A DNA stretch of 46,150 nucleotides, taken from the sequence record NC_021190.1; one strand, given 5' to 3'. A program made the position numbers. Shown piece after piece: positions 42,001 to 45,000 of the stretch (position 1 is its first letter; each line of letters begins with the position of its first letter). The DNA comes from Enterobacteria phage phi80.

Positions 42001-45000
42001 GAAAAACTGGATAGATTCATCTCTAACGCTGGGAATACGTTCAGTCGTTCCGAAGCCAAAAAAATTCAAGCCCGAGGTTAACGCCTTGGGCTTTTTTTAT
42101 TTCTTTGTGGCCTAAATCGCTTCGAGCCAAAAAAACGCGGAGAACGACATCACCCCTCTCCGCAATAACGACTCAATCTCATACCCGCTTGTCTTTCTTT
42201 TATCCACAAAGAGGTAAAGCCATAACTTAGTGGAAATGGTAACAGCTAAAAACTATTTGAAAAGCTAATTATTTTTTGCATCAACTGGCTATTCTTAAGG
42301 ATTGTTTAATTTTTTGCTTTCCTAGCGAGAAAGAAGCTCCGGAAACTATCAATCAATACAAGGCTGCCGTTCGGCGGCCTTTTTTATTCCTAGCAACAGC
42401 ACTCGCACAAAGCGAGGTGAGAGTATGTATCGCATGGACAAACTAACCACTGGTGCTGCCTATGGCGCTTCAGCCGGGAGCATCCTAAACGGCATGTTGA
42501 ATGCCTACAGCCCCGAGCAGTGGAACGCTATCGGCGTGCTGGTGGGTATCATCATTGCCGTAATGACGTATCTGACAAATCTCTATTTCAAAATCCGCGA
42601 AGACAACCGCCGCAGCAGGAGCCGAGATGAACCCAACGTTGAGGAATAAGCTGGTGGGTGCCATTGTTGGCGGATCAGGGGCAATCACTATTGCTGCAGT
42701 AATGCTGGGCAATGCGGATGGACTCGAAGGTCGGCGTTATTACGCCTATCAGGATGTGGTCGGCGTCTGGACCGTTTGCGATGGGCACACTGGTACCGAC
42801 ATTCGCCGCGGTCACCGATATACCGACAAAGAGTGTGACAACCTGCTTAAGGCAGATCTGCGAAAGGTGGCAAGCGCCATCGACCCGCTGATCAAGGTTC
42901 GCATCCCTGAGCCAACCCGCGCCGCGCTTTACTCCTTCACCTATAACGTTGGCTCTGGTGCTTTTGCCAGCTCGACGCTGCTGAAGAAGCTGAACTCCGG
43001 TGATGTTCCGGGTGCGTGTAAAGAACTGCAGCGCTGGACTTATGCTGGCGGCAAGCAGTGGAAGGGGCTGATCACCCGGCGCGAGATTGAGCGTGAAGTC
43101 TGCGAGTGGGGCCAGAAATGAGCCGATTAACCGCAATCATCTGCGCTGTCGTTATCTGCCTGCTGGTTTCCATGGCCTGGGCCATTAACCACTACCGCGA
43201 CAACGCCATCACCTACAAAGACCAGCGCGACAAAGCCACCAAAAGTCTCCGCCTGGCTAACGACACCATCAAAGACATGCAGACCCGTCAGCGTGATGTC
43301 GCTGCACTGGATGCCAAATACACCGGAGAACTGGCTGATGCGAAAGAAACCATTGAGCGTCTGCATAGCGATGTCATTGCTGGCCGTAAGCGGCTGCAAG
43401 TCGCCGCCACCTGTGCAAAGTCAACGACCGGAGCCAGCAGCATGGGCGATGGAGAAAGCCCAAGACTTACAGCAGATGCTGAACTCAATTATTACCGTCT
43501 CCGAAGTGGAATCGACAGGATAACCGCGCAGGTTAACTACCTGCAGGAATACATCAGGACGCAATGCCTGAAATAATTTTTTTGCAAATCACAAAGTCAA
43601 TTTAATGAGCCTCGCGATGCGGGGCTTTTTTATGTCCGCAGTAAACGCGCATCTCACGCGCATATTAACGAGAGCCTTTCAGTAAGCGAGCCTGAGAAAT
43701 GCCGTTATAGGTGGCGACCTCTCTCGGGCGGCTTTTCTGTGAGACAGGCTCACTTTCTAAAAGGTAAAGACGCTATGAATAATCCGTCAGTTATTCCGGC
43801 CTTCGACTTCCGCGAAATGGTCACGACCCTCGACAACAAGATAATCACCACATCACTCAAGGTGGCGGATTACTTTGGCAAGCGACACAAAGACGTTTTG
43901 CGTGCCATACGTAACCTGAAATGCTCCGATGACTTCACCCAGCGCAATTTTGCGCCCATTGATTTCATTGATAAAAATGGCGATGTTCAGCCTATGTATA
44001 ACATCACCCGCGACGGATGCATGATGCTAGTGATGGGATTCACTGGCAAAACAGCTGCCGCAGTGAAGGAGTGTTACATCAATGCCTTCAACTGGATGGC
44101 CGAGCAGCTAAACCGGCGCATGGCGATGGGTGAAGAATTGCAGCATCGCTACGCCATCAAAGAAACGCGCTCAAAGCTGAAAGGCACGATCGGAAGCCGT
44201 TTGATGAACGAGCGGAAGAAAGAGAAGCGCGTCCTGGAGCTCGAACATGAGCACATCATGCAGGTAACGCAGCCAGAATTGTTGATTGGCTGATCGCGGC
44301 ATTACAGCAGGCATTCACTGAGTGCCTGTGATAATGCAACAGCCCGTACAAAACGGGCTTGGATTTATCTCTTTGTTGCGTTCATGGTCACATGGTAAAC
44401 GAATTGGCTAAATTGGTTATCCCAGCGCCCATTATGATTAGCTGCAACTAATTGCATTAACGCCTGCATTAACTTGCTGAACAGCAAGATTAACTTAAGT
44501 CTGTTTTTTGAACTGTCACTATCTAAGGAAACTTCTTCGGTTAATTGATTCTCGGCGTTAAAAATACCCAGTTTTGATTCTTCCATGCTGGGTTCCGTTG
44601 GATGCTGTTTAAAGTATTCAGTCAGAGTATCCTTCAGGCTCTGGATCCTTGAATCAGCAATGCTTTGTATTGATGGATTGTGTGCAAGGTCATTACGCAT
44701 TGAGTTGATGGTTTTAAGTGATTTCATAAGTTCCGGGGGGATTCCCAGGTTTCCCGCCATGGATATTTTAGTATTACATTCGATTAAAAGTTTGTTTTTA
44801 TCTCTTCCAAAGAGATCTTGGCAGTCACAGCATGCGCATATCCATGCTTCGACCATGCGCTCACAAAGTAGGTGAATGCGCAATGTAGTACCCACATCGT
44901 CATCGCTTTCCACTGCTCTCGCGAATAAAGATGGAAAATCAATCTCATGGTAATAGTCCATGAAAATCCTTGTATTCATAAATCCTCCAGGTAGCTATAT

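Follow-up and report, generated by a model that had tools for sequence, protein, structure and literature searches.

Near the right end of the genome of Enterobacteria phage phi80 (record NC_021190.1), and antisense to late transcription, lies a gene for a 204-residue protein that, on the basis of profile and fold comparisons, is best filed as a new and distant member of the HepS-type family of solo-HEPN abortive-infection proteins. The DNA analyzed here, referred to as the window, measures 46,150 bp and represents the complete phi80 (Lula) genome, with a lambda-type cos sequence at its end; its bases 1-20000 have 99.7% identity to the partial phi80 record FN582354. The HEPN gene was initially taken for a single moron, but it is one half of a conserved two-gene cassette of roughly 0.9-1.05 kb, of which the other half encodes a protein of 63 amino acids in the opposite direction. 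The explanation that covers the observations best, and that we consider probable, is that a HepS-type solo HEPN RNase serves phi80 as an accessory defence gene, that it is triggered by something other than the tail-tip protein J of lambda, and that the 63-residue protein acts as its inhibitor in the lytic phase.

HepS (STM14_3211; PDB 9oij/9oik) is a solo HEPN protein encoded by the Salmonella prophage Gifsy-1, and experiments have proven it to be an RNase that aborts phage infection (Sargen et al., Nature 2026, PMC13043305). The protein is default-off and non-toxic alone. It is triggered when 32 residues of the siphovirus tail-tip protein J, surrounding lambda F924, bind to it directly and form a composite beta-sheet with the N- and C-termini of HepS (these fold only on trigger binding), after which HepS cuts tRNA anticodon loops and the infection is aborted. 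Both R100 and H105 are needed for RNA cleavage in vitro, and the H105A substitution abolishes defence. In this way lambda is restricted via J F924, while Gifsy-1 itself escapes as its own J has an I and not an F at this position. The homologues of HepS were reported to lack a conserved partner gene (all from PMC13043305). Because HepS is a proven prophage abortive-infection RNase, the description 'lysogen-expressed anti-phage effector', which an earlier reading from the sequence only had given to the phi80 gene, is by analogy still the best reading of it.

Assignment of the 204-residue protein to the HEPN superfamily

The open reading frame (ORF) listing of the window contains a single ATG-started ORF at 44365-44979 on the minus strand, so that the predicted 204-residue gene is real. 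Its GC content is low (40.3%, against 52.1% for the window), and the GGAGGA Shine-Dalgarno sequence that had been ascribed to it is present and is kept as GGAGG in the closer homologous loci of the alignment. The substitutions relative to the homologue of locus L002 are biased towards the third codon position (44/22/111 for positions 1, 2 and 3), and by this comparison the gene is under purifying selection. The annotation is that of a hypothetical protein, also in the RefSeq entry of strain DH10B, although one public record labels the phi80 protein 'DUF4145 domain-containing'.

The sequence-only reading had based its HEPN proposal on the Rx4H motif R-N-D-L-A-H (R95 to H100). The motif is present, but on its own it constitutes weak evidence, because an Rx4H is expected by chance in around 25% of the proteins with the length and composition of this ORF (Rx4-6H in around 58%) and because a second, meaningless Rx6H match begins at R4 of the same protein. 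As far as can be judged from the alignments, its significance comes only from being invariant throughout the family and from aligning with the catalytic motif in HepS. A word-indexed search of 5.8 billion non-redundant proteins recovered only 19 clusters with 47-100% identity to the phi80 protein. In an alignment of 16 homologues covering the same range of identity, R95, N96 and H100 are invariant, as are E40, R41, E44, W46, K71, A75, N92 and, within a conserved C-terminal tail (186-204), W186-x-N188...Q192. A profile search of 1.84 billion representatives yielded 200 relatives at E<1e-3, nearly all 170-200 amino acids long. Among 79 relatives, with identities down to around 20%, the residues conserved in at least 90% are L33, H36, L37, E40, K71, A75, N92, R95, N96 and H100.

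The connection to HepS follows from several comparisons. The narrow family profile retrieved HepS (9oij) from the PDB with E=4.7e-4 and RNDLAH in register with HepS R100-H105, and the broad profile made from the 79 sequences did so with E=9.9e-14 and RNxxAH in register; the chain of the HepS H105A mutant scored below the wild-type chain. An hhalign comparison of the phi80 clade with the HepS-centred clade gave a probability of 99.7% (E=2.4e-25, 161 columns), many of the relatives found with the phi80 profile directly match a HepS fragment, and intermediates bridge both clades. The AlphaFold2 (AF2) model of the protein (predicted local distance difference test, pLDDT, 83; predicted template modelling score 0.80) is a helical bundle (helices 28-51, 68-77, 82-100, 109-125 and 156-181) with one beta hairpin (136-151), whereas the tail 186-204 is predicted to be disordered. 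When this model was compared to the PDB with Foldseek, the top four matches were HepS chains, with a probability of 1.00 and a template modelling (TM) score of ~0.5 over near full length. The HEPN identity is supported by these profile, hhalign and Foldseek results, and the structure prediction proposed earlier as a check indeed returned a HEPN-like fold. We conclude that, to the extent that profiles and a predicted model can tell, the assignment is sound, with the all-alpha HEPN fold and the catalytic R-N-x3-H kept and with homology to HepS over nearly the full length of the protein, and that the closest characterized homologue on sequence comparison is HepS (~14-16% identity).

The Foldseek matches that follow HepS are weak and comprise MtlR/YggD (E 0.5-1), the HEPN domain of sacsin and the HEPN toxins 5yep and 7ae6. 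The presence of MtlR/YggD in this list could be taken to mean that the phi80 protein has a HEPN fold and no nuclease activity, being a regulator of that kind or a binder that blocks the tail assembly of competitors without cutting RNA, and HepS itself indeed interferes physically with the folding of J (PMC13043305). Considering that R95, N96 and H100, the signature of the active site, have been retained both among the closer homologues and in at least 90% of the distant relatives, we regard such a function as very unlikely.

The phi80 protein belongs to no curated family, and scans of Pfam and NCBIfam assigned no family at threshold to it or to its 63-residue partner. The relatives show weak Pfam matches to the HEPN families RiboL-PSP, Abi_2, Cthe_2314, DUF4145 and Csm6; the gathering threshold of Abi_2 (PF07751) was not reached (best E=0.0031, weak matches in 5 of the 79 relatives). 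In PHROGs the protein is a member of phrog_5483 ('unknown') and below threshold it is matched by phrog_2158, 'abortive infection resistance protein' (E=0.025), while PADLOC returned weak, sub-threshold CARF_HEPN matches. A fold search of BFVD gave no significant viral match. A tblastn search of a phage record collection that contained neither the complete phi80 genome nor Gifsy-1 hepS recovered one distant homologue, in Salmonella phage FSL SP-016 (27.7% identity).

A conserved small gene lies head to head with the HEPN gene

The public records place the start of the partner gene at 44960, which yields 76 amino acids and an overlap of 20 nt with the start of the HEPN gene. From a comparison of 13 lineages the Met at 44999 (M14 of the 76-residue ORF) emerged as the conserved start, so that the protein has 63 residues and begins with MQIETKEMVIFLRDDGISLQYPDGQCAGYG... 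Since the substitutions in this gene concentrate at third codon positions (11/10/30, 10/8/33 and 10/7/28 in three comparisons), the sequences indicate a real protein gene under purifying selection. By tblastn, it was found beside the HEPN homologue in every locus fetched to that stage, and its ORF is intact in 11 of the 13 lineages and decayed in two. A distance of 19-21 nt between the start codons is kept in all 11 lineages with an intact partner, including those in which the identity of both proteins has dropped to 40-50%. Thus, one property of HepS, that of standing alone without a partner, is not shared by the phi80 family.

The AF2 model of the partner is a four-strand beta meander (pLDDT 79). 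All its Foldseek matches had E>0.4, so that no family or fold could be assigned, and in PHROGs it is phrog_20632, of unknown function. Its database name is 'Fur-regulated protein'. We found no literature source for this name, and regulation by Fur was rejected, the best Fur-box in question matching at 12 of 19 positions, a background level reached by 25 sites in the window.

Given this lack of informative matches, and given that the HEPN gene survives without the small ORF, the latter might be regarded as an unrelated passenger moron, linked to its neighbour by promoter and terminator signals shared within a compact cassette. We judge this rather unlikely. The head-to-head spacing has been kept despite the divergence of both proteins, every homologue of the small protein that was looked up turned out to adjoin the divergent 204-residue gene, and the two families are similarly small (13 clusters for the partner and 19 for the HEPN protein).

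The two lineages with a decayed partner bear on its role. In L029 and in L007/L008 the partner ORF is full of stops and frameshifts and the HEPN ORF is full-length with RNDLAH. Because the HEPN gene stays intact where the partner has decayed, the partner is not an obligate antitoxin, and this candidate role was rejected. The more general idea of a type II toxin-antitoxin or addiction module, in which a constitutively toxic HEPN RNase and a 63-residue antitoxin would stabilize the prophage without any sensing of phage, draws on the tight linkage, adjacency and co-conservation of both genes and on the fact that many HEPN toxins have small cognate antitoxins, with 5yep and 7ae6 even among the weak fold matches. 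Nevertheless, it is quite improbable in view of the two pseudogenes, of the absence of the small ORF upstream of the homologue P0020 (41% identical), of the divergent orientation, which precludes an operon, and of the lack in the small protein of an MNT nucleotidyltransferase or DNA-binding fold; moreover, the homologue HepS is non-toxic alone (PMC13043305). Likewise, none of the proteins encoded nearby (that of rha, the 63-residue beta protein and that of the 242-residue ORF) matches a nucleotidyltransferase family, as would be expected for a HEPN-MNT pair. By analogy, the tolerance of the HEPN gene without its partner fits a default-off enzyme like HepS. L007 is a prophage remnant without morphogenesis genes, and the decay of the small gene together with an intact HEPN gene in this remnant is as expected for an immunity factor that only a replicating phage requires, although this holds for one case only and is not obvious for L029.

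The cassette as a mobile unit

All loci that were examined are of phage or prophage origin, in line with an accessory gene of prophages. According to blastn, the cassette corresponds to a block with unrelated flanks, which exists in a longer and a minimal version (Table 1). The phages in which it occurs are unrelated in their head, tail and lysis genes, their morphogenesis modules being HK97-like, P22/Mu-F-like or of other types. These comparisons indicate that it moves as a self-contained low-GC unit between unrelated phages. Wherever genes were called (L002-L007, L042 and L043), the small gene runs in the same direction as the flanking phage genes and the HEPN gene runs against them. Among 5426 complete E. 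coli genomes, 94 contain the exact cassette, and a large number of these belong to laboratory strains with phi80dlacZdeltaM15 (DH5alpha, DH10B, TOP10, NEB 5-alpha, 10-beta, XL10-Gold, JM83 and HST04). Like the intact gene beside a decayed partner, this stable carriage fits a default-off enzyme comparable to HepS. Relatives were found in prophages of Citrobacter, Enterobacter, Atlantibacter and Pantoea; scans for more distant loci with P0020, P0022 and P0079 returned nothing from viral contigs.

This distribution also bears on the possibility that the HEPN gene serves the lytic/lysogenic programme of phi80 itself, for instance in host RNA turnover or in the control of spontaneous induction, and has no part in defence. 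The location in the late region would be compatible with such a role, as would the unusual induction behaviour and very high free-phage titres of phi80 (PMC2885432). We nonetheless attach little likelihood to it, considering that the gene is antisense to late transcription, that the cassette moves between unrelated phages, that the HEPN gene is intact in the defective remnant L007 and that the experimentally characterized homologue functions in defence.

At the left edge of the cassette two strong hairpins form a bidirectional terminator-like element (z-scores for folding of -4.6 on the minus and -6.2 on the plus strand, with none of 200 shuffles as good), which lies inside the conserved block in L003, L023, L024, L025, L028 and L030. 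At the right edge of the minimal cassette there is a conserved segment with the sequence TCAGG-N8-CCTGA; a hairpin after the small ORF was not thermodynamically significant. The segment overlaps a weak, partly conserved promoter candidate in the HEPN sense (TTCATT-17-TAAAGT), of which the score (8.9) was not above background. No RNA element of Rfam was recovered.

Proposed function and the evidence that bears on it

By homology to HepS, the lysogen would make the HEPN protein as an inactive oligomer. Binding of a protein of an infecting phage to this oligomer would open the composite R/H active sites, and the activated enzyme would cut RNA, most likely tRNA anticodon loops, and abort the infection. 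The conserved and predicted-disordered C-terminal tail is a candidate for a sensor that folds on binding, comparable to the termini of HepS. The anatomy of the cassette suggests how phi80 might spare itself. As only 19 nt separate the start codons, the promoter and 5' untranslated region of each gene should lie inside or beyond the other gene, and the two mRNAs should be mutually antisense. During the lytic phase of phi80, Q-antiterminated late transcription would oppose the HEPN gene and at the same time yield the small protein, which may be an inhibitor that spares the phage's own growth, analogous to Ith for Tha. The latter two proteins are encoded by the S. aureus phages 80alpha and phiNM2 (Rostol et al., Nat Microbiol 2024, PMC11087260). 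Tha is a prophage HEPN RNase that is activated by a tail protein, and Ith is a 66-residue inhibitor encoded on the opposite strand that inhibits Tha in the prophage's own lytic cycle, with immunity and induction excluding each other as a result of antisense transcription (PMC11087260).

The published phenotypes of phi80 lysogens are informative in this respect. Such lysogens do not plate T4 and cut the yield of P1 tenfold, for which no determinant was named, and the titres of lambda, lambda i21 and lambda i434 on them equal those on a non-lysogen (PMC2885432). From the normal plating of lambda it follows that the HEPN protein has a different trigger than HepS or is inactive in lysogens, and the J tail tip of lambda is probably not what activates it. 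For the T4 and P1 phenotypes there are two candidates, one of which is the HEPN cassette. The second candidate for a lysogen-expressed defence gene encodes a 289-residue DUF7946/DUF7947 protein (Pfam E=4e-62 and 1e-20; weak PADLOC match to PDC-S42) and is located directly downstream of the cI-like S24/HTH repressor gene, thus in the position of lambda rexAB. As the cassette and the DUF7946/DUF7947 gene are both kept in DH5alpha and DH10B, a comparison of genomes cannot pick between the two.

Several observations weigh against the function proposed here, in addition to the normal plating of lambda and the existence of a rival candidate for T4. Consensus and position weight matrix scans for sigma-70 promoters gave nothing above background for either gene, and expression of the HEPN gene in the lysogen is therefore an assumption. 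The relation to HepS is a remote one (the identity and TM score given above, and a separate clade), and in the alignment HepS K71, a modelled tRNA contact, corresponds to I66 of the phi80 protein, so that its substrate could differ from that of HepS. The J protein of phi80 contains the equivalent of the lambda trigger peptide (902-933) at residues ~1089-1120 and has retained F and Q at the positions equivalent to lambda F924 and Q922; for this reason phi80 itself is predicted to trigger the HepS of Gifsy-1. As to the small protein, look-alike strings (VIFL.., GN.QIFM) prompted a test of whether it mimics the trigger hairpin of lambda/phi80 J. This was rejected, as the family hidden Markov model scored J no better than 1000 shuffled J sequences, and the small protein is thus without resemblance to J above the level of chance. 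Neither does it resemble Ith-1 (hhalign E=0.41), and the comparison of Tha-1 with the phi80 HEPN protein gave E=0.17 with only the region of the RNxxxH motif aligned, on the basis of which homology to Tha-1 or Ith-1 was rejected for both phi80 proteins. Finally, a decayed small ORF also occurs in a viral contig of 40.7 kb (L029), and in the nearest outgroup, P0020, the 188 nt upstream of the HEPN gene contain no small ORF.

A more explicit version of the proposal would be that the HEPN protein senses a non-J trigger, perhaps a component of T4 or P1, that the 63-residue protein represents a new HEPN inhibitor, and that the 19-nt, mutually antisense layout acts as the switch by which immunity is shut off once the carrier phage enters its lytic phase. 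That all of these hold together seems unlikely at present. If true, it would link the paradigms of HepS and Tha/Ith, yield a new small inhibitor of HEPN proteins as well as a compact, easily engineered on/off defence cassette, and, with a T4 or P1 component as the trigger, explain the long-unexplained T4 resistance and P1 interference. It would also imply that cloning hosts like DH5alpha, DH10B, TOP10, JM83 and XL10-Gold, in which the cassette is intact, contain an unrecognized defence system. The HEPN gene in the phi80dlacZdeltaM15 remnant of cloning strains could then bias phage plating and phage engineering.

Neighbouring genes and other features of the window

The positions of the features are collected in Table 1. 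The HEPN gene had been thought to stand alone between Rz and cos, but the same region also contains a Rha-family gene, the 63-residue partner gene and a 242-residue ORF.

Table 1. Position of the HEPN cassette, its signals and other features within the phi80 window.
Feature	Coordinates	Strand	Remarks
J gene	16630-20208	plus	
Dam-like methyltransferase, first ORF	26494-26835	minus	
Dam-like methyltransferase, second ORF	26921-27379	minus	
DUF7946/DUF7947 gene	33588-34457	minus	289 aa
cI-like S24/HTH repressor gene	34591-35355	minus	
Holin, lysozyme, Rz/Rz1	42425-43576		
Intrinsic terminator	43607-43627		
Structured element, copy 1	43645-43755		
Rha-family gene	43739-44293	plus	Pfam E=8e-31
Mobile block (blastn)	~44298-45347		
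Terminator-like element	44298-44358		between convergent rha and HEPN genes
Minimal version of the cassette	44365-45219		
Putative HepS-like solo HEPN protein, 204 aa	44365-44979	minus	ACB02449.1 / AFV29200.1 / WP_001097360.1, annotated 'hypothetical protein'
Codons of R95-N96-D97-L98-A99-H100, predicted catalytic Rx4H motif	44697-44680	minus	read from sequence
Head-to-head spacer	44980-44998		19 nt, both ribosome-binding sites inside
Shine-Dalgarno GGAGGA of HEPN gene	44983-44988	minus	3 nt (TTT) from ATG
63-aa partner gene (MQIETKEMVIFLRDDG...)	44999-45190	plus	ACB02450.1 / AFV29201.1; co-directional with phage late operon
Weak promoter candidate	45202-45174	minus	HEPN sense
Conserved right-edge segment	45191-45220		just past small ORF stop; phi80-like lineages
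Structured element, copy 2	45239-45340		
242-aa ORF (orf242)	45352-46080	plus	directly precedes cos

The 242-residue ORF, which directly precedes cos, is a member of phrog_17079 (function unknown) and has a marginal Pfam match to Phage_Tail_Tip (E=6e-5, residues 119-151). Other PHROG families also contain the N-terminal 87 residues of this ORF, which is suggestive of a modular protein. A structured element of ~100-110 nt occurs in two copies that are roughly 74% identical, each located just upstream of a plus-strand accessory gene of the late region (rha and the 242-residue ORF, respectively). Both copies fold into a small 5' hairpin that they share and a long imperfect hairpin, of which the inner sequences differ (z-scores of about -3.0 each; none of 200 shuffles folded as well). 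The element has no match in Rfam. In several phages the HEPN cassette ends on its right-hand side with the second copy. Possible roles of the element are those of a regulatory RNA or leader and of a boundary at which morons are exchanged by recombination. Elsewhere in the window, a Dam-like adenine methyltransferase of the D12 class is encoded by two ORFs with a gap of 85 nt, one of which matches the N-terminal and the other the C-terminal half of the model. This points to a split or interrupted gene or to a frameshift in the phi80 sequence.

Comparison with known systems

The gene had been described as occupying the position of lambda bor. It indeed lies in the same accessory region, as both are opposite-strand accessory genes between the lysis cassette and cos, but the likeness ends there: lambda bor encodes a serum-resistance lipoprotein, an unrelated protein, and only the genomic neighbourhood is common to both. 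With Abi_2, DUF4145 and the RiboL-PSP HEPN family the phi80 protein shares the superfamily and the motif. In view of the T4 resistance of phi80 lysogens, the latent RNases of E. coli that abort T4 infection, namely the anticodon nucleases PrrC and RloC and the HEPN RNases RnlA and LsoA, form a relevant comparison, although we detected no sequence relationship between these and the phi80 protein. Within this group dedicated partners are known, in the form of the EcoprrI restriction-modification system and of the antitoxins RnlB and LsoB.

The Tha/Ith pair resembles the phi80 pair in the combination of a HEPN gene with a small gene on the opposite strand, and it is by this analogy that inhibition is proposed for phi80. 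The layout differs. The genes tha and ith are convergent, overlap at their 3' ends and are located inside the cI operon of 80alpha, whereas the phi80 genes are divergent, have their start codons 19 nt apart and lie in the late region.

The closest known system remains HepS. Both proteins are single-domain HEPN proteins of ~200 amino acids from lambdoid siphovirus prophages and are tolerated in the absence of an antitoxin, and besides RNxxAH the residues E40, K71, A75, L78 and N92 of the phi80 protein align with identical residues of HepS, among which L78 corresponds to L83 of the HepS tetramer interface. The genomic setting is different: HepS is encoded between replication and antirepressor genes, and the phi80 gene and its homologues are found among tail genes or in the region from the lysis genes to cos/terminase. 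As became clear from HepS in 2026, the sensing of a phage and the killing of the infected cell can be combined in a lone HEPN protein, with self-targeting avoided by a silent trigger variant in its own prophage. The relative described here represents a distant clade, present in a classical model phage, and would have found a different solution in a partner gene that is read in the lytic direction. The conserved head-to-head partner, for which no conserved counterpart was reported among the HepS homologues, is the defining difference of the phi80 member and may make it a two-component variant with built-in self-immunity.

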